The position numbers and the translations under genes are program-made. Shown here piece after piece: positions 2,901 through 58,512 of a stretch of DNA of 64,000 nt. The notes under the pieces were generated by a model. That model did no database searches, was not told the DNA's origin, and worked only from the letters and a program-made list of their open reading frames with translations. The number at the start of each line of letters is the position of its first letter. Positions within the stretch are counted from its first letter, which is position 1. This DNA comes from a phage. The DNA is taken from NCBI GenBank assembly GCA_012813795.1, contig GCA_012813795.1_4087.1, one strand, 5' to 3'.

Positions 2901-2979
2901 TAATTGATAAATAATAGCATATAATCAAGGAAAGAAAATCACTTATTATGTGGGTGCTTTTAAATAATTGATAAATAAT
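2901..2979 (+). repeat. two exact copies of TAATTGATAAATAAT (2901-2915, 2965-2979) upstream of gene 3023
   Basis: read directly; contains the GATAAATAAT late-promoter-like core. Confidence 0.8.
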
Positions 2980-3022
2980 CTTAAGCAGGAGAGTCCTGCA
3001 CAAAATTGACAAGGAGATTTTT

Positions 3023-3622
3023 ATGAGTCTTAATTCTTTTAACCGTAACTATGGTATGTCTGCTAACTCCCGTGAGTACTGGGGTGGTGATAATGGTTTT
3101 GTAACCATCGTTGTTGATCTACCAGCAGATGTTGAAGTTGGTGCTACCAAAGTAACTTCCGATGGTTCTGAACTACAAGATGAAGCACTACAAACTGCGA
3201 TCACTAACGCACAATACAACCAATTCATGCTAACCCAACTACTACAACAACGTGCTGTTCTAGTTACTACTTCTGTACTAGCTCTTGACACTGACGTAGT
3301 AATCCCAGCGGATTTCAAAACTGTTGGCGGTAACGTAGTTGCTTTCGGTACTTCTGGTGCTGATGTTGCTGGCGGTGCTGGTTCTGTTGCACTAACCTTC
3401 ATCTGCGAACGTCAAGACGTTTTCGCTAAACAAGATGTTCGTCCAGGTGCTGCTTACTCTGTTCCAGTTGATCCAACTGTTGAACTAGCTAAAGTAATCG
3501 CTCAAGCTAAATTCTTCCGTACTAAATCTTTCGTAGATGTTACTACTGATGGTGTTGGTGATGCTGAAGCTGCTAAAGCTGTAGCTATTAAAGTTCGTGC
3601 TGCTCTACCAGTTCAACTATAA
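3023..3622 (+). CDS. hypothetical abundant late protein (paralog of 3638..4330)
   Basis: extreme codon bias (CTA, CGT, GGT, ACT, GTT), AAGGAG RBS, shares QQRAVLVTTS and TF(I/L)xER motifs with its neighbour. Confidence 0.8.
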   Translation: MSLNSFNRNYGMSANSREYWGGDNGFVTIVVDLPADVEVGATKVTSDGSELQDEALQTAITNAQYNQFMLTQLLQQRAVLVTTSVLALDTDVVIPADFKTVGGNVVAFGTSGADVAGGAGSVALTFICERQDVFAKQDVRPGAAYSVPVDPTVELAKVIAQAKFFRTKSFVDVTTDGVGDAEAAKAVAIKVRAALPVQL

Positions 3623-3637
3623 TATAAGGAGATTAAC

Positions 3638-4330
3638 ATGTCTAATATTAATACTTCTTTTGAACGAATTAACGGTTATTCTTTTGACAAAATTCTAGGT
3701 TATTTCTGTGGTACTAACGCCCTAGCTTCTATCGCTGTTAGTAAACTAGGTGACGTTAACGTGCGTGTTACTGGTGCAGTTGGTTCTTTTGCTGGTCTAC
3801 AACGTTTTCTAAACACTGATATTCCTGAAGTTATTACCGAATATCTAAATGACAAAGGTATCATCCGTATCGACGGTACTCCATTCGAAGTTGCCACTGT
3901 TGAAGCTGATTACAATGCTTCCTACGCTGCTCAAACTAACGTTAAACGTCTAGTTGATGTTGTTCAACAACGTGCAGTTGTTCTAAGTACTTCTGAAATC
4001 GGTGGTAATGATGCTTCCGCTCCACTAGCAGTCGAAGGTTTCACTAACGCAGTTGATGGTGTACTAAGTGTTGGTACTGTTGATATTGCAAGTGCTTCTG
4101 TTGTTACTTTCCTAGTTGAGCGTGCGAACGTATTTGACAAAGACCTCGTATCTTTCCAAGGCGTTCCAAGTACTGAAATCGAAGAAGGTCGCCTACTTAT
4201 CGACGATCTAACTGGTATCCCAATGCTTGCAAAAGATGGCGTTACTGAAGTCTTCCTAAAATCCCAAGCTGCTGATGCTGCTGGTGATTTCGGTATCAAG
4301 ATGTTCAAATCTATCCCAGCAATGGTTTAA
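3638..4330 (+). CDS. hypothetical abundant late protein (paralog of 3023..3622)
   Basis: same codon bias; shared motifs QQRAVVLSTS and TFLVERANVFDKD; followed by a terminator. Confidence 0.8.
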   Translation: MSNINTSFERINGYSFDKILGYFCGTNALASIAVSKLGDVNVRVTGAVGSFAGLQRFLNTDIPEVITEYLNDKGIIRIDGTPFEVATVEADYNASYAAQTNVKRLVDVVQQRAVVLSTSEIGGNDASAPLAVEGFTNAVDGVLSVGTVDIASASVVTFLVERANVFDKDLVSFQGVPSTEIEEGRLLIDDLTGIPMLAKDGVTEVFLKSQAADAAGDFGIKMFKSIPAMV

Positions 4331-4342
4331 TAAATTAATACA

Positions 4343-4376
4343 AGAAAAGGAGAACATATTGTTCTCCTTTTTTTTA
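4343..4376. terminator. bidirectional rho-independent terminator
   Basis: GGAGAAC-atatt-GTTCTCC hairpin flanked by an A-run and a T-run. Confidence 0.7.
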
Positions 4377-5391: not shown

Positions 5392-5392
5392 A

Positions 5393-5599: not shown

Positions 5600-5620
5600 T
5601 TTATATCTTCCTTTACTTTT

Positions 5621-5648
5621 AAAACCAAAAGGGGAACTCCAGTTCCCC
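5621..5648 (-). terminator. rho-independent terminator after the clamp gene
   Basis: GGGGAAC-tcca-GTTCCCC hairpin followed on the minus strand by TTTTGGTTTT. Confidence 0.6.
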
Positions 5649-5658
5649 TGTACTTTTA

Positions 5659-10013: not shown

Positions 10014-10042
10014 TCATAAATTTTTAAAGTGTTCAGTACTGA

Positions 10043-10345: not shown

Positions 10346-10444
10346 TGTTTTATCTCCATGTGTTAATGAAAAAAATAGACACTCCACAATGTTCCTCGTG
10401 GAATGTCTCTATTATATCAGTACTTCTCAATGTGTCCCAAATTT

Positions 10445-10903: not shown

Positions 10904-12514
10904 TCACCCATCAATAGTTTTCCATGAACCATTAACTAAAATTTGCAAATATTTATAGTATACACCACCAATGTTATCAGCAGAGTTTTTACCAACATCC
11001 TGCACAATTATACCACTAAGCATTGCACCAGATGGACAGATGAAAGTCCAAGATATTTCGTTGTGGCCTGGATTAAATAATTTTTGCTCAATATAGCGGG
11101 CATCTTGTACTGAACCGGTAGTGATTGTTACATTACCATTACCATCTGCCCATGCACCATTAACTGTTCTCACGATAGGTTTACCACCAACAGATGCGGA
11201 ATTGGCATTAACTGTTAATGAACCTGGAATATACAAAGAACCACCACTGTTAACTGTTACAGCACCACCACCAGCACGAAGTCTTAGTTCATTACCTTGG
11301 AAGTATACTGCGGCACGTTCACCACCACTAGCGTTCTGGAAGAATAAGTACAAATCACCACCACCACGAATACCAGCACGGTTAGCAATGTATAATTCAC
11401 CAGACATTGTATCACCAGTTTTACGAACAAAACGATCATTTGCAGTATTTTCGCTCATCGCAACTGATGGTTCGGAAATGTTATACAAAATTGCAGTGTT
11501 AAAGTGTGGTACGTCAATACCTGTTACTGTATGGTTATGGGTAATTGTACGTGCGTTCGCATCATCATAAATTGGTTGTGAAGTTGATAATGCAGTTGCT
11601 GCATTGTTACCATCTACACTAAATTCCATACGGGCATTCTTATCACCAAAGATTGCTGGACCACGATAGCCTCTACCATCATTCCATGCTCTACCACTAA
11701 TGAAAACAGCATCATCTGCATCACTACCGTTAGTACCTAGCATTTTACCAGTTCCATGAATATGGTCTGGAATAGTGAAAGTACTCGGTGTTAATGAACC
11801 ACCACCTGCAATAATTGCGTCAGTTTTGGTTATACCACTAGTGGTGATACTTCTTAAATATCCATCACGGTTCAAGTTTGGTACTTGTTTGGTTATTGTA
11901 CCATTAGCACCTTGCCACTGCCACCACATACCATCAGCAAAACACCAACCATCGGATGTTTTCCACGGTTTAGCTTGGGAGCCGTCACGACCACTCTGTC
12001 CACCAGTACTACCCGACATTTGTTCACGTATACTAGCAACGGTTTGTCCAGATGTCAAGCTATAATGCATAATACATCCAGGTTTAGCACTCGTGTACAA
12101 ACCATTAGCACCTTGAATTGATGAAGGTGTTGGGAATATAATATTCAATGTAGTTCCGCTAATAGAAGCAGTTGGAATTGATGACATTGAATAGGTTACT
12201 CTATCAACCTTAGTTCCAAGTATAGAATTGATATCCTGAATCTGTTGTTCAATTGGTGCAACTACATCGGCAGCACTTAACATTTCAATCCAGTTAGTAC
12301 CATCATGATACTTCAAAGTAAGAGTGTTTTTGTCAAATACTATCGCCCCTGCTTCACCAACAGGTAAATCCTGAACAGGTAGTATTACCGATGAAGAATT
12401 CATTCTAATTGGTCGAGGATTAGTTGGTGTACCACCTAGTACTATTAGATTCAATGAACCATTTTCCGCAGTACTGGTTACAGTATTCTGTGGATGATTA
12501 AAACTTATGCTCAT
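10904..12514 (-). CDS. tail fiber protein (gp12/gp37-like distal region with HxH motifs)
   Basis: Gly/Ser/Thr/Asn-rich; IPDHIHGTG and THNHTV motifs as in T-even fiber tips. Confidence 0.7.
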   Translation of the reverse strand: MSISFNHPQNTVTSTAENGSLNLIVLGGTPTNPRPIRMNSSSVILPVQDLPVGEAGAIVFDKNTLTLKYHDGTNWIEMLSAADVVAPIEQQIQDINSILGTKVDRVTYSMSSIPTASISGTTLNIIFPTPSSIQGANGLYTSAKPGCIMHYSLTSGQTVASIREQMSGSTGGQSGRDGSQAKPWKTSDGWCFADGMWWQWQGANGTITKQVPNLNRDGYLRSITTSGITKTDAIIAGGGSLTPSTFTIPDHIHGTGKMLGTNGSDADDAVFISGRAWNDGRGYRGPAIFGDKNARMEFSVDGNNAATALSTSQPIYDDANARTITHNHTVTGIDVPHFNTAILYNISEPSVAMSENTANDRFVRKTGDTMSGELYIANRAGIRGGGDLYLFFQNASGGERAAVYFQGNELRLRAGGGAVTVNSGGSLYIPGSLTVNANSASVGGKPIVRTVNGAWADGNGNVTITTGSVQDARYIEQKLFNPGHNEISWTFICPSGAMLSGIIVQDVGKNSADNIGGVYYKYLQILVNGSWKTIDG

Positions 12515-12554
12515 GTAAAAATCCTTTTTTGTTTAATATATATCATATTTATAT

Positions 12555-12863: not shown

Positions 12864-12893
12864 AGATATCTCCTAGTATGGAGATATTTATTA

Positions 12894-13244
12894 TTAACTA
12901 ATTCTGAAGTTTACACCCGCATCTATCAGGCGTTGAAATGGATTTTGAGGATCAAACTCGGATGGGGTTTTAGGAGTGTTCAGTACTGGAGCATCAGCAT
13001 GTAACTTCGACATGCGTTCTTTGTATTTGTCAATATATTCTTCATACAACATGTCTTCTGAATCAGTACTCAATATATCTTCTATAAAATGATCAGTACT
13101 GTAATCCAGACGATCATCATTGTAATACAACGTCTCCGTAGCCTCATCATAACCCACCAACGTTCCATAAGGAACATTGATCTCAATTTTTGAGTACTGA
13201 CTCTTTAAGTACTCTTCTTTTTTAAAAATGTATACAGTTAACAT
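12894..13244 (-). CDS. hypothetical protein
   Basis: ORF within the endonuclease-like island. Confidence 0.4.
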   Translation of the reverse strand: MLTVYIFKKEEYLKSQYSKIEINVPYGTLVGYDEATETLYYNDDRLDYSTDHFIEDILSTDSEDMLYEEYIDKYKERMSKLHADAPVLNTPKTPSEFDPQNPFQRLIDAGVNFRIS

Positions 13245-13268: not shown

Positions 13269-14381
13269 TTATTCAAATGTATTTACAATCTCCAGTACTG
13301 TTTCAAGATACTTAGCATCAAAAGTTTCTGTGAATCCTGATGGCAACTCTTCAGTACTTACTACACCACTATCAATGTATTGTTTCAAAAACTTTTCCAG
13401 TACTAATGGTTTATGTCCATCTTCAAAGTAACGTTCTACCAGTACAGTGTGTTTAAAATCAGAATGACGACTTTGCTCATTTACACGGCGTTTCATATCG
13501 CCAGTGATTCCATACTTGTACACTGTCTTATCTTTATTAGTTAGTTTTTGAACATAGAAATATCCAGGTTTTGATGGCTGATATCCGTATTCACCACAAC
13601 CAGGACATCCCCTACCAGCAATGTGGGATTTTGGTGACTGTTGAAATATGCCATGTGTAGGACACGTTATTTTTACTGGAACAATACTACTTTCATACTC
13701 TACCGTACTGTAATCATACTTGTGACCATGAACTAGTTTTGCTTCAGAAATAAATTGTTCTGTTGTTCTTCCACCTTTACCAGAACATACACCACAACCT
13801 GATTTACCAAGTATCAATGTTTTTGGATCAACTTCCCAATCATGTTTCCCTTCATTACAATGTACTGTTACTTTAGTTGCTCTGTTAACATACTTTGTTT
13901 TTGAGAAACTAAGTTTATCACCATAGTTACGTTTGACAATTTTTATAAATTCGTCATTTGTATGCACAGTATTAATATTACAAACGTTACACCCAGCACC
14001 AGTTAATAACTTGTTCGGTGTTATGTCAAAATACCCACCATGTTCAGTACAGAATATTGAAACTTTAGTTTTTGCATTTACATAATTCAATTTATCAAAT
14101 TTAAATTTGTCAGCACCAAATTTTTTTTCAACTTTAGAAATGAAATCATCATTGTTTGAACGCTGTGACATGTTACTGTAACAATTTGAACATGTACATG
14201 AAATATGACGAATCGCTGATTTTGTATTTTCAATACCACATTTATTACATTTTAATGTAGTTTTACTTGATTTAAAAATCATTGAATCAAAATCAAACTC
14301 ACCATACATTCCGTATTTTTTAATCATATTTTCTTTAAAGTTTTTAATTAACATTTTATTCATCTCGGTGATTGTCTTCAA
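13269..14381 (-). CDS. homing-endonuclease-like protein: four tandem zinc-ribbon modules plus a C-terminal GIY-YIG/T5orf172-like domain
   Basis: repeats ...CxxHGxF...LxGxGCxxC x4; C-terminal GYFYV...YKYGIT...R..E. Confidence 0.6.
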   Translation of the reverse strand: MKTITEMNKMLIKNFKENMIKKYGMYGEFDFDSMIFKSSKTTLKCNKCGIENTKSAIRHISCTCSNCYSNMSQRSNNDDFISKVEKKFGADKFKFDKLNYVNAKTKVSIFCTEHGGYFDITPNKLLTGAGCNVCNINTVHTNDEFIKIVKRNYGDKLSFSKTKYVNRATKVTVHCNEGKHDWEVDPKTLILGKSGCGVCSGKGGRTTEQFISEAKLVHGHKYDYSTVEYESSIVPVKITCPTHGIFQQSPKSHIAGRGCPGCGEYGYQPSKPGYFYVQKLTNKDKTVYKYGITGDMKRRVNEQSRHSDFKHTVLVERYFEDGHKPLVLEKFLKQYIDSGVVSTEELPSGFTETFDAKYLETVLEIVNTFE

Positions 14382-14420
14382 TGTGATAATTATATATAAT
14401 TAAATTTACCATGTCAAGCT

Positions 14421-14454
14421 TTTTTGTAAAAGAAAAGGGACTCCGAAGAGTCCC
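14421..14454 (-). terminator. terminator after the major capsid gene (UUCG tetraloop)
   Basis: GGGACTC-ttcg-GAGTCCC on the minus strand followed by TTTTCTTTT. Confidence 0.7.
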
Positions 14455-14477
14455 TAGTATATTTAAATTCTTTGTTA

Positions 14478-15682: not shown

Positions 15683-15718
15683 GTTTTTCAGTATGTTATT
15701 ATTTATGGTACTGAAAAA
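15683..15718 (-). promoter_or_regulatory. late-promoter-like CATAAATAAT plus flanking inverted repeat upstream of the capsid gene
   Basis: minus strand TTTTTTCAGTACCATAAATAATAACATACTGAAAAA; about 45 nt before the ATG. Confidence 0.4.
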
Positions 15719-16864: not shown

Positions 16865-16913
16865 TCTGTTCTCTCCTTTAAGTACTGAAATATCTGTACT
16901 TCAAATATACAAA

Positions 16914-16921
16914 TATTTATA
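16914..16921 (-). promoter_or_regulatory. T4-type late promoter TATAAATA upstream of the scaffold gene
   Basis: exact TATAAATA on the minus strand about 50 nt upstream of the start at 16864. Confidence 0.45.
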
Positions 16922-17553: not shown

Positions 17554-17583
17554 AATGATCTCCTTTCTTTGTTTTATTTATTA

Positions 17584-18426
17584 TTAGAATTTTGGTTGTG
17601 ATTTTGGTAGTGGGGAACGAGACTTAGAAGAACCAGTGGTTACTTTCTTAACGTCTTTCATTACGCCTTTGCCGCTATCCATAACATTATTCATGTCGTC
17701 TGGTACAGTGTGAGATTCAGTGTCTACGCCATCAAATTTGTCATCAACTACTGGAGTTGAGCTTTTAGCGATTTTTACTGGAGCTACGCCTTGTACTGGA
17801 GATTTAGCTTGGGAAGCGACTGGGGATTTAGTATTTGCACCAGCTTTTTCTTTCTTATCAACATCAGCAACTGCTTTTAGTTTGAAAGACTCACCAACTT
17901 TTTCATCACCGAATTGAACATCAGCAAAATCATCACCGCCGTCTTCGGAACCAACTTCTAGATCAACTTCTTCTTCGCCACCTACTGGTTCTTCAGCGTC
18001 TAGGTCAACTTCACCTTCGCCGGAGATTTCATCAAACATTTGTTGTAGGCCACGGAAAGCATCTTGAATGGAAGCCCATTGGTCTTCGGAAGGGACTTCT
18101 TCACCTTCTGCACCAACTTCACCTTCAGAATCTTCTTCACCAGCTTGGAATTCGATATCATCTTCAGCACTCTTGTCTTCTTCACCAAGAGAATATTCGA
18201 TTTGACTATTAAGACCAGCATCTGGGGAAACGTCGAAGTCTTCTTCTAGTTTCTCTTCTTTGTCGTCTTCATCGCAGCATTCTTCGTCGTCCATGCTTTC
18301 TTCTAGTTCTTTGTTAATTTCTTGTGCTTGTTCAACAAAGTACTTACGCATTTTTTTATCAGCTACATCTTGCTCGCCGTTAGCAAAAGCTTCGATTGCT
18401 TCTTGTAGTAGTTTTAAATTAGCCAT
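17584..18426 (-). CDS. acidic prohead core / internal head protein
   Basis: Asp/Glu-rich; ATG at 18426 with GGAGGA RBS; late-promoter-like motif upstream. Confidence 0.55.
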   Translation of the reverse strand: MANLKLLQEAIEAFANGEQDVADKKMRKYFVEQAQEINKELEESMDDEECCDEDDKEEKLEEDFDVSPDAGLNSQIEYSLGEEDKSAEDDIEFQAGEEDSEGEVGAEGEEVPSEDQWASIQDAFRGLQQMFDEISGEGEVDLDAEEPVGGEEEVDLEVGSEDGGDDFADVQFGDEKVGESFKLKAVADVDKKEKAGANTKSPVASQAKSPVQGVAPVKIAKSSTPVVDDKFDGVDTESHTVPDDMNNVMDSGKGVMKDVKKVTTGSSKSRSPLPKSQPKF

Positions 18427-18460: not shown

Positions 18461-18490
18461 GTATGATATTATTTAGTACTGAAAAAATTC
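18461..18490 (-). promoter_or_regulatory. late-promoter-like CTAAATAAT with conserved flank upstream of the core protein gene
   Basis: minus strand TTTTTTCAGTACTAAATAATATCATACTT, near-identical to the element upstream of the capsid gene. Confidence 0.4.
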
Positions 18491-18530: not shown

Positions 18531-18818
18531 TTACATCATTCCGGCATTCGCATCGGGTGCTGGTGCTGGAGCATAAACAACAGCGACTACATTATTTCTA
18601 CGCTGTTCTTCATTTGCTTTAAATTCTCTGTACTTACGCAAATTGTTAAGTACTTGCAATGTGAGTTTGGGTTTTCTGGAATCCGTAATTTTATATACGG
18701 TCTGATCATCTTCAGGGTCGTACATAGAATCAGAATTCGATTCAAAGATATCCTTTAACATGCTATCTCCTTGCATTAATATGAAGGGAATTTTTACGTT
18801 CCCTTCATTTATATACAT
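18531..18818 (-). CDS. small head-associated protein (gp67/68 position)
   Basis: position between portal and core genes only. Confidence 0.4.
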   Translation of the reverse strand: MYINEGNVKIPFILMQGDSMLKDIFESNSDSMYDPEDDQTVYKITDSRKPKLTLQVLNNLRKYREFKANEEQRRNNVVAVVYAPAPAPDANAGMM

Positions 18819-18830
18819 TGTTATTTATTA

Positions 18831-20573: not shown

Positions 20574-22745
20574 TTAACTATTGCGTTCACCTTGTGTATT
20601 TTCAGAAATTGTTCTTAAGTAATTATTTGTCTGATTTGTTGCTGCGAGTGATTGTTCACTCATTTCTGCTAGACGTTTAAAAATTTCTTTGATCTCTTCT
20701 GAACTCATGTCATTATTTATAGTTCCGTTTTGAGGCGTTACCAGAGATTTTATATCACGATCTGGTTCTGGTGGGAATGGTGCTTCACCAGGTTTCCATG
20801 CGGATTTATCATAATGTTTACGAGTTAATTCCATCATAGGTGGTGTATTTGGCATTACTGTAGTCTGGGCGTTTTTAGGTGGTTCATAGCCCAAGACTCG
20901 ATATGCATTATCTACGTTAAATGGTCTAGGTGGTGTATATAATTTAGAAGATTTCCATTTTTGGAAGTCAAGTGTTTTTTCTTCTACAAATTTTGTGAAA
21001 TCGTCTACTGAATTACCAATAGAATCCCAGAAAGATGTAGCTTTCTCTTCTATTTTCTTTTTAGGTTCTTCTTGTTTTTCAGATTTATCATCTGAACCAA
21101 ACCATCCTTTTACTTTATCCCATAACTTTCCAGGTAAATCCATGAGATTCTTCATGAAGTCATCGAATGCTTTTGAAACTTGAGTATATGTGTCCCCAAA
21201 TATGTCAGAACCCAATCCCTCAAGCCATAATACAAATTCTTCACCAATACGGTCAACATAAGAAACCGCATCCTTGAATATTGGAACTAACCCAAATCCA
21301 TCTTTAGCCAATTCCCAAATAAATCCCCATGCACTATCGGTACGATCTGCAATTGCTGTCAAATAATCAACAACATTATTTTGAACATCAGCATACATTT
21401 TATTGAATGGAGCAACAAATTCAGTACTGACCCATCTGTTCAATCTATCAGTAAATTCTGCGATTTTATCTGCTGGTCGATTTTTGTCAGCATTAATTGC
21501 AGCTTCCATATCTAACATTTGCTTAGCAAATGCGGCAGCGGTGAAGTTTTGACTTCGTTGCATATCTTCCATATCTTTTTCAACGCGTTTTCTGTTTTTC
21601 TTCACCCACTGATATTGTGCTTCACGTATAGCTTTTGCATCGGTTACACCAGACTTAACCATGTTCTCACCAAGGTCAGCGAATTCGCTAATCATTGGAG
21701 ATAATAAATCATCAGGAACACCACCAATTGATATTCTGTGGCTAATCAATCTTAGGAAATCAGTACCCATATCCCCCATACCACCTGCCGCTTCGGTAAG
21801 TGCTTTAGTGGTTAATGTTGCGGTTTCTTCTGATAGTCCCACCCAGTTGTTTAGTGTAGTTTTTAGTATTCTTGCATCAAATGATTTATCAAGTGATTGT
21901 GTCTTTTTAAGTAATTCATCAATTGACATACCCATTGTCTTACTAAAAGTAGACATAGTTTTAATTAACTCTTGGGTACTTTGTGCTTGGTTTATATTCC
22001 TTACTAGTTCTGCACCACCAAATTGTTTTTGAATTTTGATGTTACGTGCTGCTAAATCTGATAAAGTTTTTTGTGACATACCATATAGGCCAAGTTTATC
22101 TTGGGCATTTTGAACTACACCTAACAATTTACCAAATTCCTTAACGCCATCTCCATACGAACCATCCAATTGTGCAATAACATCACTATGAGTTGATATT
22201 ACTTCACTGAATAGATCCATAGACATTAACGCTGAACCTGAACCTTTTAGCAAAGAGCCATAACCTTCAGCAAGAGAAACACCCGCACTGTTGACTCTGT
22301 TGTACATTTCAAGCTGGGCGTTCATTACGTTATATACTGCCATCCCTACATCAGCAACCATTTTAAATGCTGATGCTGCCATTCCTACAGGACCAGGGAT
22401 CATAGAAAGAGAGCCAGCTACGGATGATGCACTCATACCCATTGAGTTAATGACAGTACTGACATTCGCTGAAGTACTCATCATTGTTTTACCAACGTTT
22501 GTCATTTCACTGGACATTACTCTGAACATTTTACCCATAGAGGATGAATTACCACGAGAACCGCGTCCACCACCACTTGGTCCAGATGAATCGCCAGGTG
22601 ATGGGTTACCACCACCATTATTTTTCTTTTTATCATTCTTTAAACTTTCTGCTAACAATTCACGTATAGCTGAAAGACCATCTACGGTATCATTAGATTT
22701 ATTCACTATCTGTTGTAGTAAGTAATCACTGTTGTTTACAGCCAT
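20574..22745 (-). CDS. tape-measure-like / internal virion protein
   Basis: Gly/Ser-rich N-terminus followed by a Met/Ala/Ser-rich hydrophobic region; 723 aa; AGGA RBS. Confidence 0.45.
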   Translation of the reverse strand: MAVNNSDYLLQQIVNKSNDTVDGLSAIRELLAESLKNDKKKNNGGGNPSPGDSSGPSGGGRGSRGNSSSMGKMFRVMSSEMTNVGKTMMSTSANVSTVINSMGMSASSVAGSLSMIPGPVGMAASAFKMVADVGMAVYNVMNAQLEMYNRVNSAGVSLAEGYGSLLKGSGSALMSMDLFSEVISTHSDVIAQLDGSYGDGVKEFGKLLGVVQNAQDKLGLYGMSQKTLSDLAARNIKIQKQFGGAELVRNINQAQSTQELIKTMSTFSKTMGMSIDELLKKTQSLDKSFDARILKTTLNNWVGLSEETATLTTKALTEAAGGMGDMGTDFLRLISHRISIGGVPDDLLSPMISEFADLGENMVKSGVTDAKAIREAQYQWVKKNRKRVEKDMEDMQRSQNFTAAAFAKQMLDMEAAINADKNRPADKIAEFTDRLNRWVSTEFVAPFNKMYADVQNNVVDYLTAIADRTDSAWGFIWELAKDGFGLVPIFKDAVSYVDRIGEEFVLWLEGLGSDIFGDTYTQVSKAFDDFMKNLMDLPGKLWDKVKGWFGSDDKSEKQEEPKKKIEEKATSFWDSIGNSVDDFTKFVEEKTLDFQKWKSSKLYTPPRPFNVDNAYRVLGYEPPKNAQTTVMPNTPPMMELTRKHYDKSAWKPGEAPFPPEPDRDIKSLVTPQNGTINNDMSSEEIKEIFKRLAEMSEQSLAATNQTNNYLRTISENTQGERNS

Positions 22746-22776: not shown

Positions 22777-22785
22777 ATATTTATG
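22777..22785 (-). promoter_or_regulatory. late-promoter-like CATAAATAT upstream of the tape-measure-like gene
   Basis: about 32 nt upstream of the start at 22745, inside a 7-bp inverted repeat ATTCCTA/TAGGAAT. Confidence 0.3.
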
Positions 22786-22852: not shown

Positions 22853-23395
22853 TTAGTATCGTGGTTCCAGTACTGCACTATAGGTTCGTTTTGGTGAACC
22901 GTCACTAACATTTTTATTACTGAATATGATAGAGTTTGTTTCTCTATTAACATACAATGTACCTTCAAGTTTTACTGTCTTTTGAACACCGCCGACAGTA
23001 TAAGTGAAGTCGTTAATGTTGTAATAAACATCATATCCAGATGCAGTACTTCCAATATAACTCCATGATTCATATGTCTGACCCATCAGTACTTCATCAC
23101 CGTTAACAGTGAATTGGATGAATGTCCATTTTAAATGTTCCTCGTTAGGATCTTCGTTATACAGTTTACCTTTGTAGCTAACAATTTGTGTTGGTAATTC
23201 ACGTTTAGTTAACTGCTCTTTGTACTCTGATTCTTTAGTTGTGGATGTTTCGCTTTTCGGAACAATCATACCGATTACTAACATAACAACCATAAAGATA
23301 CCAAAGGCTTGGAACAAACGTTTGATTGTTGTCTTTATCATAAAATATTCCTCTTGGGTGATTTTGAAGTTTTGAACATACATAAATACTTTCAT
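22853..23395 (-). CDS. putative membrane-anchored protein
   Basis: N-terminal hydrophobic segment FGIFMVVMLVIGMIV. Confidence 0.4.
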   Translation of the reverse strand: MKVFMYVQNFKITQEEYFMIKTTIKRLFQAFGIFMVVMLVIGMIVPKSETSTTKESEYKEQLTKRELPTQIVSYKGKLYNEDPNEEHLKWTFIQFTVNGDEVLMGQTYESWSYIGSTASGYDVYYNINDFTYTVGGVQKTVKLEGTLYVNRETNSIIFSNKNVSDGSPKRTYSAVLEPRY

Positions 23396-23400: not shown

Positions 23401-24288
23401 TTGCATGGAGAAAGTATTATGTCAATGAACCCGTTAGCAAAATACACAAAAATCGAAGAAATTAGTACTAAACTCGTCACTAACAACATTTTCCAGTACA
23501 AAGATGGTGTATTGGGGAGCAAAGGCATTAAATGTGGTGTCTGTGCTCGTAGTGCTCGTGACGAAATGATGCTCAATACACCTGATATGTTACTCAATGG
23601 TAGTGCAGTGTCATCTGTTATCGAAAACTGTGTACCAAACATTCTAAACGCAGAAGAGCTTTATGTCAATGACGTTGAGCAAATTCTTATTGCTATCAAG
23701 TTAGCATCCAAAGAAACCAGTTATGATATCAATGTCGTATGTCCATCCTGTTCAAAAGAAGGGCGTTTTGAACGTGACCTTTCTTATCTATTGGAAACGG
23801 CTGAATCTTTTACTGAAATTCCGAGTATTGATCTTATTAATGGTTTATCTCTCCAGTTTAGACCACTTACTTGGAAAGAATATTCAGAGTTTTCTCAACG
23901 TATGTTAGCTGAACAACAAAAAACTAAGTATCTTGAGAGTACTATTGATATTTCAGAAGATGATAAAATTAAAATGTTTTCTGAAGTATTTGAAAACATG
24001 GCACAACTAAACTTTGATATGATTGCTGGAGTTATTGATAAAGTAATTACTCCTGATGGTGATGAAGTATCAGATAAGAAATTCATAAGTGAATGGTTAG
24101 GTACTCAATCAAAAGAAGTGATCAAGCAAATCAGAGAGAAAATGGATGAAGTACTAGAAATTGGTGTATCACATACTATGGAAGTTGAATGTATTGAATG
24201 TCAGCATCAATGGGAACTTACTGGATTAAAGTATGACCCTACTCATTTTTTCGATCTCAGCTTCTCTTCTCAAACCCAGAAGAAATAA
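23401..24288 (+). CDS. zinc-finger protein (three CxxC pairs); possible C-terminal extension via -1 frameshift to 24466
   Basis: CGVC, CPSC, CIEC; T_TTT_TTC heptamer at 24246-24252; the -1 frame stays open for 63 codons beyond the 0-frame stop. Confidence 0.6.
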   Translation: MHGESIMSMNPLAKYTKIEEISTKLVTNNIFQYKDGVLGSKGIKCGVCARSARDEMMLNTPDMLLNGSAVSSVIENCVPNILNAEELYVNDVEQILIAIKLASKETSYDINVVCPSCSKEGRFERDLSYLLETAESFTEIPSIDLINGLSLQFRPLTWKEYSEFSQRMLAEQQKTKYLESTIDISEDDKIKMFSEVFENMAQLNFDMIAGVIDKVITPDGDEVSDKKFISEWLGTQSKEVIKQIREKMDEVLEIGVSHTMEVECIECQHQWELTGLKYDPTHFFDLSFSSQTQKK

Positions 24289-24478
24289 AAGAACTTCTGG
24301 ATGATATGGAGTTGAATAAATCAGATATTAAAAATGCCCTTATGGATGCTGCTGTTTATGTAGATAATGTCGATTATGCAACTCTACTTAATATGCCAGT
24401 AAATGACAGAGATATGCTTATTAAGGCATACAATAAGAAAGTAAAGAAGATGAACGAGAAGCACTAATACTCATAAGA

Positions 24479-24510
24479 AGCCAGCACATTGTTGCTGGTT
24501 TTTTTGTTTT
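24479..24510 (+). terminator. rho-independent terminator after the 23401 gene
   Basis: CCAGCA-cattgt-TGCTGG followed by a long T-run. Confidence 0.7.
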
Positions 24511-25361
24511 TGTTTTTTGGGTTTTTACTTACAAAGTAGATGAAAGAAATTATGATCTTAAAAGATTTATTCTTGAAGGAATTCATTTGATTTATATTGA
24601 ACTCATCTAACTCATTTCATTCGTTAGCTGAAGAATATTCGTTAACTACGTTAACTCATATTCATTTTAATATAATTATAAAGAACTTTAAATGATTTAA
24701 TACTTGACGGGATTTGTTGAGGATATTTCATCCCCCCGCAGGGGAATGAAGATAATAAAAAAGAGACAATTAAGTCTCTGTTTCTTGACGCTGATGGCAT
24801 CGGTATTATTGTATTGCGAATTTCTTAAAATTTAAACGTAATTATATTGTAAAAATATTAAGAACGAAAGCGGGTTGCTCTGTTTCTCTCTATCGCAGTC
24901 ATGTGCAACGGTCGTCAGTCTTAAACATCCTGACACTCACCTGAAAGTCTATACAATCAAACTTCAGGCTGTTTAATGAAATGAATCATCAAACTCCCTT
25001 AGCAAATCTGGTAAGGTGCGATCCTTATACATCTATCGAGGAACTCTCTGTATGCTTATCGGAGTTCTTTATTGAGCCGTGTCGCCGTGAGGGGTTCATA
25101 ATATGCCCACATCTAACGGGTTTCTTTTGCTCATCGCACTGTTGAACTGCTCATCTACCCTCTACATTTTCGAGTGGATTAGGTTCTAATTTATATGCAT
25201 TTCTGCATTCAACAGGATTGTCAGTACTACATAAAACATTATAGCACGCAATTTAAAAGTGTCTCAAAATATCTAATCTTTTTTATAAAAAAGTACTTAA
25301 AAATTTCTTAGGAATGTATTTCATAAATATTTCATAAACTAACTTAGATCTAAGGCACATT

Positions 25362-28030: not shown

Positions 28031-29062
28031 TTATAATGATCTATAGATTTGTATTAGTAGATTCTTGTCGAACATTGGAGAATCAATTTCCATGATTTGT
28101 TGTAAAACTATCTCATCAACTGATTCAGTACTTTCAAAGTGTTCACCTTCTTCCAAAAGTTCTTTGATACTTTGTTTACTTGTAACAACGTTAAACTCAC
28201 GAATATTATAAAGTTTAGTAAAAGTATCACGAATAAAACTAATCTCATCAGTTGTGATTGGAATATCAACCTGAACTTTCGAGATAGAGTTATCTTGTAA
28301 GTAATAACTTGGATCAGTTAGTAGCTCTGACAAAGTAAATGTTCTGTATTTCGGTGCAGCATCCCATGATTTGAATGTTGGTTCTGAACCGTGTTCAAGA
28401 ATCATAACACCTCTAGCATCATCCCATGTGTCTGAGAAGTTATGAGGGAAACAGTTACCAGTATAAATTACACGAGTTCCTTTAGATGTGAGTTTGGACT
28501 GTCGTTTATGGAAATGCCCACTAAAAACATACTCACAACCACCAAAAGAACCTTCAGTCTCTTTACCATGATCTGGCATTTCTACCATTTTGTTAAGCAA
28601 ATATCCAGGCAATTCAAGATGACCAAATACATATTTGCTTTGTAATTTAGGTAGCATTTTGTATTCATCTTCAATCATAAATGGGATGAAAGTACAATCA
28701 TCAATTGTTGTAATTTCATTAATGAACTCGATGTTTTCATAAACTTGTGCCATATTAATACTTGTAATATCGCGTTTGTTTTTATGATACATGTCATGGT
28801 TCCCAACTAAGAAGTAAACTTTATCAAAGTTGTCATTTAGTAATTGGAGAATTTGTAAACCATAGTTTAATGTTTGAATATTAATGTTGCTGCGGTTATG
28901 GAAGTAATCTCCCATAAACACACATACTTTAATACCTTTCTTTTTGGCTTCATCAATCATAAATTTAATGAAGTTCAAACAATCTTCGTTGTGCTGCTTA
29001 CTGTTATTCTTTAATCCTAAATGAATATCAGTGAATGTAATTGCTTTATCAAATAGTGCCAT
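28031..29062 (-). CDS. 47: recombination nuclease subunit (SbcD/Mre11-like, T4 gp47)
   Basis: phosphoesterase motifs DIHLG, GDYFH, GNHD; start refined to the ATG at 29062. Confidence 0.85.
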   Translation of the reverse strand: MALFDKAITFTDIHLGLKNNSKQHNEDCLNFIKFMIDEAKKKGIKVCVFMGDYFHNRSNINIQTLNYGLQILQLLNDNFDKVYFLVGNHDMYHKNKRDITSINMAQVYENIEFINEITTIDDCTFIPFMIEDEYKMLPKLQSKYVFGHLELPGYLLNKMVEMPDHGKETEGSFGGCEYVFSGHFHKRQSKLTSKGTRVIYTGNCFPHNFSDTWDDARGVMILEHGSEPTFKSWDAAPKYRTFTLSELLTDPSYYLQDNSISKVQVDIPITTDEISFIRDTFTKLYNIREFNVVTSKQSIKELLEEGEHFESTESVDEIVLQQIMEIDSPMFDKNLLIQIYRSL

Positions 29063-29888
29063 CGTCATTTTTCCTTTCAATCATATTCATTTCGATTTCA
29101 ATCTGTCTTGTATGTGATGGTGTAAAACCATGCATCTCAAGAAGGTCGTCGCGAATGTTACGTACATTCTTCTCACTGTTCAAAATAGAACGGAAGCTAT
29201 TGTTAACGAATGACGTATAGTATGAGAAAGGATTTAGTTGGACAGCAGGTTTATCTTTCTTATACAAGATACTCTCTTTGAAGAGAAGTGCATTTTTAAC
29301 TAATTGTATTCTAGCATCACCCATCATTTCATCCAAATACGTATAATTTCTGTAGTTAGATTTGTGAGAGATCTCTTCGGCTAGTTTAATGAACATTTTA
29401 CCGAGTTCATTTGTGATTTTACCATGTGTTAAGTAGAAATCGCCATCTTCCAAGTCGCCTTTCCAATGTGAACGAACAACTTCATACAGAATACCTTCAT
29501 TATCAACGATATAATGTTTAAATGGTTCAAAATTCACTCGTGTATCTGGTGGAATGTGCTCATCAGTGATAACTCTAATCACCACTTCATCCAGTGGTAC
29601 ATCATTTACGAATAGACCGTGCTCATCAGCATATTCCTTTGCTTTCTTAGCACTCATATTCTCTTTTTCGCGAACACTATCAAGCATTTCATTATTCAAA
29701 CGTTTGATTCGTGCTGCTTTTGCCTTTTCAAGTAATTCTTCTGTGATTTCAGACTCATGAAACACAATATAATCATACATACCATAACTTTTATCCAAAA
29801 GCCAGCAGTATGATATCTTACTTTTATGTATTTCACGTAATAAGTCTGCGTTATTCAGATACTTCTTACGCTTCGGCTTGTTTATCAT
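29049..29888 (-). CDS. 55: late-transcription sigma factor (gp55-like) with insertion
   Basis: YLNNADLLREI and NPFSYYTSFVNNSFRSIL resemble T4 gp55; 55-47-46 order as in T4; GGAGAG RBS. Confidence 0.5.
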   Translation of the reverse strand: MINKPKRKKYLNNADLLREIHKSKISYCWLLDKSYGMYDYIVFHESEITEELLEKAKAARIKRLNNEMLDSVREKENMSAKKAKEYADEHGLFVNDVPLDEVVIRVITDEHIPPDTRVNFEPFKHYIVDNEGILYEVVRSHWKGDLEDGDFYLTHGKITNELGKMFIKLAEEISHKSNYRNYTYLDEMMGDARIQLVKNALLFKESILYKKDKPAVQLNPFSYYTSFVNNSFRSILNSEKNVRNIRDDLLEMHGFTPSHTRQIEIEMNMIERKNDDGTI

Positions 29889-29972
29889 TGTAACTCTCCA
29901 TGTAATGACCAATAGGCACAATCCGTGTGCCATCGCTAATATTATAGCACTAAAATCAGCTTTGTCCCACCT

Positions 29973-29980
29973 ATAAATAC
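29973..29980 (+). promoter_or_regulatory. T4-type late promoter TATAAATA for the baseplate operon
   Basis: exact TATAAATA about 33 nt upstream of the ATG at 30013. Confidence 0.45.
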
Positions 29981-35883: not shown

Positions 35884-35917
35884 ATATTTTATCCAATAAA
35901 TATTATAGGAGAAGTAT

Positions 35918-36849: not shown

Positions 36850-36885
36850 GATAAATATTTCTATATAAAATTTCAGTACTGACCC
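36850..36885 (+). promoter_or_regulatory. late-promoter-like GATAAATAT / TATATAAAA followed by TTTCAGTACT upstream of gp6
   Basis: motifs read directly upstream of the gene starting at 36915. Confidence 0.35.
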
Positions 36886-40416: not shown

Positions 40417-40426
40417 CATAAATAAA
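40417..40426 (+). promoter_or_regulatory. late-promoter-like CATAAATAAA upstream of the giant gene
   Basis: about 35 nt upstream of the ATG at 40461. Confidence 0.3.
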
Positions 40427-52761: not shown

Positions 52762-52869
52762 GTTCTCTCCTATGTGATTCTTCTCACTGTCATTAAAATC
52801 ATTATATCACATTCTTTCAGTTTGTCTACCTAGTAAATACAGATATACCGATTTATTTTGGAGAACAAA

Positions 52870-54366
52870 ATGGCATACAGAATGTGGAAAAAAGGTAGAA
52901 CCAATGATTATAAATTCATAGATTCTGCCATTGCTGAACAATACAATATTGGTGGCGTAGACATGTGGCTTTATGCCTTTGTCGGTGCTAAACCATCAAC
53001 AACTCCTAACGACTATTCTTACGGTGGTGATTATATCACTGATGGTTCCGCTGCGTCAAGTATTGGTGACCTAATTTTTGGTGAAACCTCAAATCGTAGT
53101 TACAATCTAGAGGCTATCACACTTAGTTGTGTTTATCAAGTACAAGAAGCAACACCTGATTTAAAAATTCCTGGGTTGTTCTTTAACTTCAACACAATGG
53201 ACATTACAGTTCATTATAACACAATGATGCAGCGATTGGGAAGAAAAATTATGCCTGGTGATGTAATTGAACTTCCAAACCTTCGTGATTTCGATGTTGT
53301 TGGTAAAGATTCAGGTTTAAACCGTTTTTACGTAGTTCAGGACGGCTTTAGAACATCTGAAGGTTACTCTGCAACATGGCAACATCACATTTACAAAATT
53401 CGTGTCAAGCCTATTACCGATTCACCTGAGTACGCGGACTTACTTACTAATAATGATTATCCAGACAACCCAGATGACCCAAATAATGGTAATGGTAACA
53501 GTGGTTCTAATGGTTCTTCACCAAACAGCAGTTATGATAACGAAATGGATATCATGAACCGTATTATAATGCAAGCTGATGATGAAGTCCCTTATATCCA
53601 CTTCACAAATGAACATATATACGATGATAGACCAGATACAACCGATTTGTCAAAGTTTGTTCTTAATGGATATGACTTCCCAGAAGAACCAGCTAACAAA
53701 ATGTACTTCTTGAAGAAAACTTTACCAGTACTGAAAGAGAAAGTCAACAATTCATGGGAAAATGTTTCAGTACCATATGGAACAACGTTTCCACGTAAAC
53801 CATCTGATGGTGATTTCTTCTATAAAGAGAATGATTCAGATGTTACGGGATATTCCCTGTATCAATATGACAAATCTGTCAAAAAGTGGCTCAATTGTGA
53901 TGTAGAATACTCAACAGGTGATGTTCCACCTAAAAATGCTGAAGATTTTTACATTCAATATGAAAAACCAACAATGTACCAGTACTTAGATGGTACATGG
54001 CAAGTTCCACCAGATACACATGTTAACTTACCTTTCAGTTCTAACAGTGTATATGGTAACATAGACTCGCAACAAGATTCAAGACCTAAAATTCCACCTG
54101 CTCGCGGCACTGTGCAAGAAGGGGACACGTTCCCATCTGATCCTACTGATGGTGAATACTTCTATCGCACGGATTACAACCCTGTAACTCTTTGGGAATA
54201 CAGTGAAGTTAAAAAGTCTTGGGTAATCTTTGATTATGGTGGACGTAAACCGTGGGAAGGTGCTGATTTGGCCCTAACCGAGTTCGTTAACAGTCCTAAT
54301 CGTGTCCCATTACACGACGCGGCAAAACCAAACACTCTATACCGTGCAAAAGGGGATAAAGAATGA
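52870..54366 (+). CDS. hypothetical (probably virion) protein with internal DG(D/E)(F/Y)FY...VKK(S)W repeats
   Basis: ATG at 52870 with GGAG RBS; repeat copies around aa 316-350 and 433-466. Confidence 0.5.
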   Translation: MAYRMWKKGRTNDYKFIDSAIAEQYNIGGVDMWLYAFVGAKPSTTPNDYSYGGDYITDGSAASSIGDLIFGETSNRSYNLEAITLSCVYQVQEATPDLKIPGLFFNFNTMDITVHYNTMMQRLGRKIMPGDVIELPNLRDFDVVGKDSGLNRFYVVQDGFRTSEGYSATWQHHIYKIRVKPITDSPEYADLLTNNDYPDNPDDPNNGNGNSGSNGSSPNSSYDNEMDIMNRIIMQADDEVPYIHFTNEHIYDDRPDTTDLSKFVLNGYDFPEEPANKMYFLKKTLPVLKEKVNNSWENVSVPYGTTFPRKPSDGDFFYKENDSDVTGYSLYQYDKSVKKWLNCDVEYSTGDVPPKNAEDFYIQYEKPTMYQYLDGTWQVPPDTHVNLPFSSNSVYGNIDSQQDSRPKIPPARGTVQEGDTFPSDPTDGEYFYRTDYNPVTLWEYSEVKKSWVIFDYGGRKPWEGADLALTEFVNSPNRVPLHDAAKPNTLYRAKGDKE

Positions 54367-55706: not shown

Positions 55707-55715
55707 GGAGGATGT

Positions 55716-56180: not shown

Positions 56181-56210
56181 AAAAAGGAGCCAATGGCTCC
56201 TTTTTCTTTT
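56179..56210. terminator. bidirectional terminator between the Nudix gene and the minus-strand operon
   Basis: AAAAAAA-GGAGCC-aat-GGCTCC-TTTTTCTTTT. Confidence 0.75.
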
Positions 56211-56213
56211 GTA

Positions 56214-57311
56214 TTACACACCAATGATTGGAATACCAGTAATGTTAAGAAGTACTGAAGCCTGAAGCTTAACACTTTGCCCAGTTCCTAAACCAGATAT
56301 TGAACCATCTATACGGAAACCTAAATGTTTACCAGTATTAAGGGAATTTATAACCCATGCTTCATAATCTGTTTTTGTCATTCCACCGGGATTTGGAATT
56401 GTAGGATCTACTCCATTAACTACCATATTAACATCCCATGTAGGTTGTGAACTGGTAATAACATCTTTAATAACTTCTAAACTTGTAATTCGACGTGGGT
56501 CTGGAATCTCACTACATGGTATAGAACCTGGCACAAAAGCACCTTCGTTGTCAATGTAGAATTGACCTTTGATGATAAATGTCTTGGAGTTGAATGGCAA
56601 TGAAACAACTTCACCAGTACTATCCTGTACTTCGCGAATCATAATTTTCAAATCATAGAAATAGTTACTTCCGAATTGGAAAACACCATTACCATTACTA
56701 AAGGATGTCCAGTTATCTGGATCTACCTTAGAACCACCACCTAAGTTGAAATATGCAAGTGTCTTAGTACTTTCAGTTTGGGTAAATTCAATATATTTCT
56801 TACCTAAATCATAGTTTATATCCAAAAGTGATGAATATTCTTTGTTTTCAGGACGAGATGTTTGAATTTCACGCCATTCTTTATTTTTCATCAAAACACG
56901 GAGTGAATCGCCGTTATTTGTCAAAACCATACGACCCATCACACTACTTTCACCATCAGGAATGGTGTTGAATATAGTGATCATTGGAATTGATGCCCAA
57001 TCTGACTCTGATGCAGTATCTATCGGTTGGCGTGCGTTATCTACTAGAGAAATAAGTAGTTCACCAATGTTACCAGTGTTTTTATACCAAATTTGTCCCT
57101 TAACACTACCACGAGGTGCAGATGGCCCACTAAAATGCTCAACTAAGTGTAGGAAGTTCTCGTTCCATGCCTGACCATAACCAACTTTATTACGACCAAC
57201 TAAGTTAATTGGGACTGGGTTGGTCCCTGGTTGATTAGGACCAAGGATGACGTTGTTTGGAATGGAAGCATAAATGCTCCCATCACTGCGATATATAGTA
57301 TAATTATTCAT
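56214..57311 (-). CDS. putative baseplate / fiber-associated structural protein
   Basis: late operon on the minus strand; Gly/Asn/Ser-rich. Confidence 0.45.
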   Translation of the reverse strand: MNNYTIYRSDGSIYASIPNNVILGPNQPGTNPVPINLVGRNKVGYGQAWNENFLHLVEHFSGPSAPRGSVKGQIWYKNTGNIGELLISLVDNARQPIDTASESDWASIPMITIFNTIPDGESSVMGRMVLTNNGDSLRVLMKNKEWREIQTSRPENKEYSSLLDINYDLGKKYIEFTQTESTKTLAYFNLGGGSKVDPDNWTSFSNGNGVFQFGSNYFYDLKIMIREVQDSTGEVVSLPFNSKTFIIKGQFYIDNEGAFVPGSIPCSEIPDPRRITSLEVIKDVITSSQPTWDVNMVVNGVDPTIPNPGGMTKTDYEAWVINSLNTGKHLGFRIDGSISGLGTGQSVKLQASVLLNITGIPIIGV

Positions 57312-57321
57312 TTACCACTCC

Positions 57322-57936
57322 TTACTGTAGTTGTACACGAACAGTATATTTTATTTGTAAAACACGATTCGCACTTTTCTCTACTGGGTGGAAAATAATA
57401 TGAGATAACGGCATACCATTATCACCATCAGTATATAAACCCAATTCATCAAATACGTAAGTACCATCCATATTAGTACTGGAACTTGTATTCTGATCAA
57501 CTGGTTCACCTAGACCTAAAGTGCAAATACAGACGATATCGGTATATGCTTGGCCTGGAATGTGAACAGTTGTGATGTTATTATACTGTGAATCAATACT
57601 ACTTGAGATTCTAGGGTTTATTTTCTTCAAATATGTTTGTGAATATAGACCACCAAATGAGGTTACACGTGGTTTTTTATATGTTACACGACCAGTACTT
57701 AATACAACAGTACCACCGTTACCAAAACGCATTTCTGATATTGACCCAACTGGGATACCGGAACTATCTTGGTTGTATGCTAGTGCGTTAGCAATTGCAG
57801 TACTCATGTTTTCTGGGTGAATTGCGTTCGATTTATCGAGTACAATTTTTTCATTCGCAGGATCAGTAACGTCAGTAATTAGTACATGACCCTTAACGAA
57901 CAGTTTTGGTTGTTCTGTTTCTAATTTCATTTCCAA
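57322..57936 (-). CDS. putative structural protein
   Basis: same operon; by position only. Confidence 0.45.
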   Translation of the reverse strand: MEMKLETEQPKLFVKGHVLITDVTDPANEKIVLDKSNAIHPENMSTAIANALAYNQDSSGIPVGSISEMRFGNGGTVVLSTGRVTYKKPRVTSFGGLYSQTYLKKINPRISSSIDSQYNNITTVHIPGQAYTDIVCICTLGLGEPVDQNTSSSTNMDGTYVFDELGLYTDGDNGMPLSHIIFHPVEKSANRVLQIKYTVRVQLQ

Positions 57937-57939
57937 TCC

Positions 57940-58437
57940 TTAAAAGTTTATTAAAATTTCTTCAATTTTTCCAGCCATACTCTTTTGAACATCTGATGGA
58001 TTCTGACTGATGTAATTACGGTCAATACCAACTTTCAAATATGTAAAATTGCCTGTTAGCGTCTCTGCAAATGTCCCAGTTGTACCATGCTCAAGCATAC
58101 TATCACCATTATTTGGATTGTATATTCTGGTATCAGTAAATTCCAGATAATAATTACATGATTCTGTAAATTTAATTGGGAACCAATCATCATCGGTTGG
58201 ATTACTAGCTAATGTTGCCAAAACATAAATTCGTCCAATAAATTCACGTAATGTGAAGGAAATTGTATGTAGACCTGTAGTACTACCATAGTAACCACCA
58301 CTTGCCATTGGTAATGTCACTTCGTTCCAGTGATAATCGTCATTTGATGGATACCAACTATCAGAATCTGGAAAATCCTGAATAGCTCCATCTTTTCCTT
58401 TGCGTTTGAAAAGAAAATTCTTTGATCTTAAAGCCAT
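57940..58437 (-). CDS. hypothetical protein (first gene of the minus-strand late operon)
   Basis: ATAAATAAAT-like motif upstream on the minus strand. Confidence 0.45.
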   Translation of the reverse strand: MALRSKNFLFKRKGKDGAIQDFPDSDSWYPSNDDYHWNEVTLPMASGGYYGSTTGLHTISFTLREFIGRIYVLATLASNPTDDDWFPIKFTESCNYYLEFTDTRIYNPNNGDSMLEHGTTGTFAETLTGNFTYLKVGIDRNYISQNPSDVQKSMAGKIEEILINF

Positions 58438-58503
58438 TGTTAAGCCCTTTTGTGTAGTGAACTTTCATTTATTTATTATTGGTCTTCGTTGCTGCATTGA
58501 ACA

Positions 58504-58512
58504 GATAAATAT
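58504..58512 (+). promoter_or_regulatory. late-promoter-like GATAAATAT upstream of the collagen-like fiber gene
   Basis: about 35 nt upstream of the ATG at 58547. Confidence 0.3.

Follow-up and report, generated by a model that had tools for sequence, protein, structure and literature searches.

A seven-base motif as a predicted T4-type late promoter in an Asteriusvirus genome

What marks the start of late transcription in front of the virion genes of a giant coliphage, and how much of the T4 late promoter is retained in that signal? The question is raised by a 64,000-nucleotide stretch of phage DNA (GenBank assembly GCA_012813795.1, contig GCA_012813795.1_4087.1; hereafter the window, to which all coordinates and strands refer), in which a first, sequence-only reading had proposed late promoters that follow a relaxed form of the T4 late element TATAAATA. 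Our analysis points to the heptamer ATAAATA as the recurrent unit. The ATAAATA sites are very probably T4-type late promoters of Asteriusvirus in which the first (-13) position is free, a reading built on the placement, orientation and gene-class association of the motif, its depletion from coding DNA, its conservation among relatives and the homology of a phage-encoded sigma factor. We infer the late timing, the pairing of that sigma factor with the motif and the exact start site from the sequence.

Over a 10-kb piece of the window, identity to Escherichia phage A4 (Asteriusvirus, 355 kb) is 97%, and other Asteriusvirus coliphages, such as phAPEC6, share 84–86% identity with the same piece. 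By sequence identity, the source of the window is a giant (~350 kb) Escherichia coli phage of the genus Asteriusvirus, within the RaK2-like group of jumbo myoviruses. The gene map, built from the A4 annotation and PHROG searches, contains 52 curated genes with a coding fraction of 94.6%. Virion and morphogenesis genes encode the major capsid protein, scaffold, protease, portal, baseplate and tail-fibre proteins and a 3325-amino-acid virion protein. Replication and repair functions are represented by a DNA polymerase, an RNase H-like gene and gp46/gp47-like nuclease genes.

Placement of ATAAATA in late-gene leaders

The heptamer occurs 21 times in the window, and 18 of these copies lie in non-coding leaders, 15–109 nt before a start codon and always in the direction of the gene that follows. 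With sense-oriented leaders accounting for 2.2% of the search space, the hypergeometric test gives p = 3e-28; the positional enrichment upstream of starts that the sequence-only reading had named as a check is borne out. ATAAATA is the most enriched 7-mer of leaders, ranking above Shine-Dalgarno words. Words differing from it by a single mismatch have 6–46 copies each in the window and are almost never found in leaders, except when overlapping a true site. A compositional accident of A+T-rich intergenic DNA could be proposed from the base content of the leaders and from the total of 21 copies, which is below the 31 expected by shuffling. This explanation is refuted by the hypergeometric statistics, by the co-orientation of 18 of 18 leader copies with the downstream gene, by the lack of such placement for 20 other words of the same composition as well as for the single-mismatch words, and by the invariance of the motif across diverged orthologous leaders, and its chance is negligible.

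Depletion from coding DNA is equally strong on both strands. Compared with 200 synonymous-codon shuffles over 60.6 kb of coding sequence, the sense orientation has two copies versus 8.7±2.2 expected, and the antisense orientation has none versus 13.6±3.3 expected. Among 21 words of identical composition, ATAAATA is the rarest in coding DNA. We attribute the purging from both coding strands to the seven bases sufficing as an autonomous promoter signal whose strength influences codon choice across the genome.

The motif also follows gene class. All leaders of at least 25 nt before virion or morphogenesis genes contain either ATAAATA (14 leaders) or a variant at its first position (two leaders), with one exception, the 32-nt stretch 1288–1319 beside the interrupted terminase gene, where the motif is missing. 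The motif also stands in front of three other genes, which encode endonuclease VII, a T5orf172-domain protein and a small product of unknown function. None of the nine leaders of the RNase H, DNA polymerase, ClpA, sigma-factor, HNH endonuclease and similar genes carries the motif, and several of these nine have promoters of the form TTGACA-N17-TATAAT or TGnTATAAT instead.

The surroundings of the sites bear on whether the motif acts in DNA or in RNA. Four sites lie directly 3' of intrinsic terminators (22778, 36851, 40418 and 61027), and five are placed between divergent genes, where transcripts must start, among them the back-to-back pair 58470 (-) and 58505 (+). The strict sense orientation and the distance of 15–109 nt to the start codon would also suit a leader element that works at the RNA level, in processing, stability or translation, and not as a promoter, and some leaders do contain conserved hairpins. 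However, sites right after terminators or in divergent regions need a promoter, and no other candidate is visible there, as at the 58470/58505 pair. Purging of the antisense orientation as strong as that of the sense orientation is not predicted by an mRNA signal, and the motif matches the late promoter of the T4 family. We therefore consider an RNA-level element very improbable.

Shape of the element and its predicted reader

The base before the motif is nearly uninformative: at 20 leader sites it is A in eight, C in five, G in four and T in three (~0.1 bit), and the consensus is therefore the 7-mer ATAAATA. The sequence-only reading was right that the first position is free; the position is better described as uninformative than as relaxed. 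When the same procedure was applied to 50 kb of the T4 late region (AF158101, 70–120 kb), T preceded the motif in 13 of 18 leader sites, versus 3 of 20 in the window (Fisher p = 0.002). The full T4 octamer TATAAATA, with T at -13, does not describe the sites of the window, where it has five copies versus 8.0 expected by shuffling, three in leaders and two intragenic (10950–57 and 20714–21). Two late leaders have one-base variants in the same register, CTAAATA at 18470–76 (-) and GTAAATA at 52833–39 (+).

The earlier inventory is partly confirmed. Every motif that it cited before late genes is present, within 0–2 nt of the position given: GATAAATA at 2906–2913, 2970–2977, 36850–36857 and 58504–58511 (all +); CATAAATA at 40417–40424 (+), 15700–15707 (-) and 22778–22785 (-); CTAAATAAT at 18468–18476 (-); and the exact TATAAATA at 16914–21 (-) and 29972–79 (+). 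The exact octamer had been placed upstream of only two late units; a third leader copy, at 12546–12553 (-), precedes a tail-fibre gene. The list of real sites was also incomplete, as it overlooked ATAAATA at 12885, 17575, 18822, 23382, 25323, 35880/35896, 58470 and 61027 and the GTAAATA variant at 52833, and did not register that A is the commonest preceding base.

No -35 element was found upstream of the 20 leader sites, where every column stays below ~0.4 bit, and several motif sites abut a stop codon or a terminator. The sigma70-type arrangement (-35 TTGACA, ~17 bp, -10 TATAAT) is not seen at the motif sites. On the downstream side, 16 of the 20 sites have A as the sixth base and none has G as the fifth; the T4 control has A at the sixth downstream position in 12 of 18 sites. 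The combination ATAAATA-N4-YATAY is present at eight sites versus 0.18 expected. Since the T4 element occupies -13 to -6 (PMC1524935), the conserved A is the predicted +1, and the YATAY box would span -1 to +4. At 35896, 12885 and 17575 the gap between motif and ATG is 15–21 nt only and is therefore compatible only with a start at most ~8 nt past the motif.

The YATAY box invites a different division of the same bases. In a bipartite promoter of another phage or host sigma70-family factor, YATAYW would be the true -10 element, ATAAATA an upstream spacer or extended element, and transcription would start ~17 nt after ATAAATA. The eight composite sites, boxes such as CATACT, TATATT and CATAAT that are similar to TATAAT, and an RpoD-like sigma factor encoded by the phage group speak for this arrangement. 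Against it, ATAAATA is invariant but the box is missing at ~8 of 20 sites; a start ~17 nt downstream would remove the ribosome-binding site at 12885, 17575 and 35896; and T4 late promoters also have an A at +6 and a TATA-like start region. In addition, the motif is the segment read by gp55, whose pocket residues are conserved. On balance, we regard a bipartite promoter as quite improbable.

A candidate reader of a T4-type late promoter is encoded in the window itself. The gene at 29049–29888 (-), annotated in A4 as 'sigma factor for late transcription', encodes a 279-amino-acid protein of the gp55 family and adjoins gp47- and gp46-like genes, the 55-47-46 order shared with T4. Its product matches the PHROG family 'late sigma transcription factor' (phrog_234, E = 3e-17) and is 24% identical to T4 gp55 by pairwise BLASTP (E = 3e-4). 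A profile of 23 homologues has T4 gp55 as its top PDB match (7d7c chain F, E = 1.1e-7), and searches of Pfam, NCBIfam and, with the single sequence, PDB gave no match. The bubble of the T4 open complex extends from -12 to +2, and its non-template bases A-12, A-9 and A-8 flip into pockets of gp55 that consist of N13, L54, R57, F86, H95, Y97 and T99 (PMC7892883). Residues F86, Y97 and T99 are identical in the window protein and invariant across its family; L54, R57 and R114 are replaced conservatively by Ile, Lys and Lys, respectively, and H95 by an invariant Phe.

The window protein is longer than T4 gp55 (279 versus 185 amino acids) by ~120 extra residues. The family profile suggests an insert between a conserved motif near the N terminus, YLNNxxLL (equivalent to T4 Y10–L17) and W142 (equivalent to T4 W23), unlike the pairwise BLASTP alignment, which places them as an N-terminal extension. 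No Pfam or PDB match was found for this extra module.

Mapped onto the T4 complex, the sites of the window would act as a -10-like element without a -35 partner, read by the host core RNA polymerase carrying the gp55-family sigma factor (29049–29888, -). The recognized element would be ATAAATA, rarely C/GTAAATA. Its counterpart in the T4 late promoter, -12 to -6, is the very stretch that is melted in the open complex and whose non-template strand is read single-stranded. The -13 base, double-stranded in T4, would simply be unspecified in the window phage. Transcription would start at the conserved A six nt after the motif, at many sites within a Y-A-T-A-Y box running from -1 to +4. If the conserved core is the single-stranded part read by gp55, the first T is for that reason dispensable in many T4 relatives.

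Several points weigh against T4-type late promoters. The literature searched on Asteriusvirus, RaK2, phAPEC6 and fEgEco12 yielded no transcript 5' ends or timing. We infer the pairing of sigma factor and motif from a homology of ~24% identity, in which the alignment of the N13 segment is ambiguous, and the sigma70-family (RpoD-like) factor that the phage group also encodes is a possible reader of the motif. PHROG and PDB searches found no gp33-like protein among the small open reading frames of the window, and gp45 is reported to be undetectable in RaK2 and CBB. Finally, a few sites may be inactive, namely 17575, 2971 and 35880 and the intragenic 10950 and 20714. On the co-activators the literature conflicts, as a comparative study assigns gp33 and a PCNA-type clamp to group 2 jumbo phages. 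Phage records searched by tblastn for T4 gp45 produced 2148 hits, those sampled being from genomes of at most 250 kb only.

A more elaborate picture of RaK2-like late transcription can be drawn from the same elements, although we hold it to be unlikely. A gp55-type sigma factor with its ~120-residue extra module would read the seven melted bases only, dispensing with the gp33/gp45 relay; at the capsid gene, the most expressed late gene, a conserved inverted repeat with co-varying arms, which holds the element in its loop, would extrude as a hairpin, present the motif as single-stranded DNA and so assist promoter opening by structure.

The T4 late promoter (TATAAATA, -13 to -6), served by gp55, gp33 and the gp45 clamp, is likewise a -10-like element without a -35 that stands before virion genes. 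Its core ATAAATA occupies -12 to -6, an A is preferred at the sixth nucleotide downstream in both phages, and both have a gp55-family sigma factor with conserved adenine-pocket residues in a 55-47-46 neighbourhood. The two differ in the prevalence of T at -13, in the length of gp55 and in gp33 and gp45, which are present in T4 but not detected and reported undetectable, respectively, on the side of the window and its phage group. T4 also tolerates intragenic ATAAATA (15 of 33 copies), whereas in the window 3 of 21 copies lie outside leaders.

A free first position, which the sequence-only reading had mentioned for divergent T4-like phages, agrees with the literature: the -13 T is poorly conserved in RB49 and KVP40 (A or T in both), S-PM2 (NATAAATA) and others, and Aeh1 has CTAAATA (PMC1524935, PMC2984593), with C at -12 as at the window site 18470–18476. 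Such phages differ from the window phage in having recognizable gp33 and gp45, and their -13 base is mostly A or T (N in S-PM2), whereas all four bases are found in the window.

The closest precedent comes from the sister phages CBB and GAP32, where MEME applied to structural-gene leaders gave 'ATAAATA with A/T-rich downstream sequence', read as a late promoter beside a gp55-like factor (PMC5259590). The features of that description recur in the window: the consensus, the gene class, the lineage and the gp55-like factor are the same, the genus differs, and in both cases the promoter is a prediction. The RNA-seq paper on phage PA5oct describes sigma70-like promoters only. The window is thus essentially another instance of a motif already predicted in CBB and GAP32, and the current picture of late transcription is unchanged. 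Our analysis quantifies placement and purging, follows the conservation of the motif through orthologous leaders, predicts a +1 A and its YATAY box, adds the C and G variants and maps the element onto the gp55 structure. It also provides a rule for annotating late units in Asteriusvirus and RaK2-like phages: scan for ATAAATA, not TATAAATA, and take the A six nt downstream as the predicted start.

Individual sites, their conservation and the capsid-gene repeat

We compared orthologous leaders among 80 IMG/VR loci around capsid-gene homologues, at a capsid protein identity of at least 85%. ATAAATA is invariant in the relatives at the leaders of the tail-fibre, capsid, scaffold, two virion and baseplate hub genes, and the proteins encoded downstream of the compared leaders are ~30–90% identical to those of the window. 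These orthologous leaders vary freely in the N4 spacer and at the base before the motif, and YATAY is kept. The CTAAATA site of the window is ATAAATA in relatives, and the opposite change occurs at other sites. Relatives with ~65–70% capsid identity have no intergenic spacer or promoter before the capsid gene and are uninformative for the capsid site.

The minus-strand leader sites begin with the exact octamer at the tail-fibre gene (ATAAATA at 12546–12552, T before, 31 nt upstream), which is invariant in nine distinct relatives. At 12885–12891 the motif, with A before it, lies 21 nt upstream of the T5orf172-domain gene and is followed by N4-CATAC. The capsid site (15700–15706, C before, then N4-CATACT) is 46 nt upstream of the major capsid gene, and the scaffold site (16914–16920, T before, then N4-TATAT) is 49 nt upstream of its gene. 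A weaker candidate at 17575–17581 (A before), 21 nt upstream of the prohead protease gene, is kept in the closest relatives only. The CTAAATA variant at 18470–18476 lies 43 nt upstream of the virion gene 17584–18426 and is followed by N4-CATACT. Further along, the motif at 18822–18828 (A before) is followed by a leader hairpin and lies 60 nt upstream of the small gene 18531–18761, and that at 22778–22784 (C before, then N4-TATATA) is located just past the intrinsic terminator, 32 nt upstream of the virion gene 20574–22745. The last minus-strand site, 58470–58476 (A before), is 32 nt upstream of the virion gene 57940–58437.

Two intragenic copies share this strand, both preceded by T. That at 10950–10956 lies in the 3' end of a tail-fibre gene, 49 nt upstream of the start of the tail-assembly-chaperone gene; it is not kept in A4 and is possibly an internal promoter. 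The copy at 20714–20720, 155 nt upstream of the portal gene, is probably non-functional or a weak internal promoter.

On the plus strand, the virion gene 3023–3622 has two copies, both with G before: one at 2907–2913, 109 nt upstream and followed by N4-CATATA, and a second at 2971–2977, 45 nt upstream, with no downstream YATAY box. The next two sites both have C before: that at 23382–23388, between divergent genes, is 30 nt upstream of the baseplate hub gene 23419–24288, and that at 25323–25329 precedes the endonuclease VII gene by 32 nt. The site at 29973–29979 (T before), divergent from the sigma gene, is 33 nt upstream of the virion gene 30013–30744. The gp5-like gene is preceded by a double site (35880–35902) comprising 35880–86, which overlaps the stop codon of the upstream gene, and 35896–902, located 31 and 15 nt upstream, respectively. 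Past their terminators, the site at 36851–36857 (G before, then N4-TATATA) is 57 nt upstream of the baseplate wedge gene and that at 40418–40424 (C before) is 36 nt upstream of the 3325-amino-acid virion gene. The GTAAATA variant at 52833–52839, followed by N4-TATAC, is located between divergent genes and precedes the virion gene 52870–54366 by 30 nt. At 58505–58511 (G before, then N4-TATAT) the motif, back to back with the 58470 site, is 35 nt upstream of the virion gene 58547–59674. The final site, 61027–61033 (A before, then N4-CATAT), is past a terminator and 57 nt upstream of the gene for the long-tail-fibre proximal subunit (start 61091), which runs off the window.

A perfect 10-bp inverted repeat at 15684–15718 (-), with the sequence TTTTTCAGTA-ccATAAATAataaca-TACTGAAAAA, encloses the capsid-gene promoter in its loop. 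A stem longer than 5 bp was found at one of 23 sites, the capsid promoter only (shuffled-flank control, P(stem >=10) = 2e-4), and the idea that all late promoters lie within inverted repeats was rejected. A stem of 5–10 bp is kept in nine of nine distinct relatives, in two complementary versions of the arms (CAG/CTG and CTGT/ACAG). The repeat may be a promoter-presenting single-strand hairpin, a hairpin for processing read-through RNA, or an operator.

The scaffold-gene leader contains a separate hairpin at 16880–16901 (-), AAGTAC-N10-GTACTT, just 5' of the ribosome-binding site. It is kept in relatives with G-U-compatible changes, AAGTGC...GTACTT and GTGCAGATA...TATCTGTAC.

Other features of the window

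A second promoter class, TGnTATAAT, is found on the minus strand at 2872–2880, 10411–10419, 29941–29949 and 52801–52809, three of the copies being GTGCTATAAT. These sites precede non-structural genes, namely the RNase H-like gene, a small regulator-like gene, the late sigma gene and ClpA. A canonical TTGACA-N17-TATAAT promoter stands before the HNH endonuclease gene 13269–14354, within the region 14355–14477. In relatives, TGAAACG-N15-TGCTATAAT lies upstream of the orthologue of 12894–13244 and resembles the 'divergent RpoD-like' promoter of CBB.

Four parts of the gene map stand out. The large terminase gene (270–1287, - strand), at the edge of the window, appears interrupted: the open reading frame 270–608 (-) matches the terminase large-subunit profile over residues 11–94 only, and the open reading frame 583–1287 (-), labelled 'large terminase subunit' in A4, matches a PHROG family of unknown function. 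The tail-fibre chaperone gene of A4 is missing between 10346 and 10444, and the colanic-acid-degradation-like gene at 59688–60056 is much shorter in the window than in A4. Lastly, an 894-nt stretch, 24468–25361, is gene-free and has no annotated gene in A4 either. It begins with a terminator and contains an extended -10 promoter, GTGCTATAAT, on the minus strand at 25238–25246. Rfam and tRNA scans of the window, this stretch included, gave no match; the stretch is a possible source of an unannotated RNA or of small proteins.

A stronger side observation than the late-promoter motif is the excess of another word. The palindrome AGTACT, often extended to CAGTACTG, has 125 sites in the window, ~1 per 512 bp, versus ~22 expected from base composition; examples are found at 10033–10042, 21421–21430 and 36873–36882. 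Coding sequence contains 117 of them versus 29.9±5.0 expected from synonymous-codon shuffles, a ~4-fold excess, and codon choice is therefore bent to create the word. A limited literature search found no explanation for the excess, and a clade-specific protein may bind, modify or nick DNA at AGTACT. In A4 and in the checked relatives with at least 85% capsid identity the excess is 3.6–6.9 fold. It falls to 2.4 fold at a capsid identity of 72%, more distant relatives show none, and in T4 AGTACT is depleted. Orthologous positions retain AGTACT about twice as frequently as they do an average hexamer.

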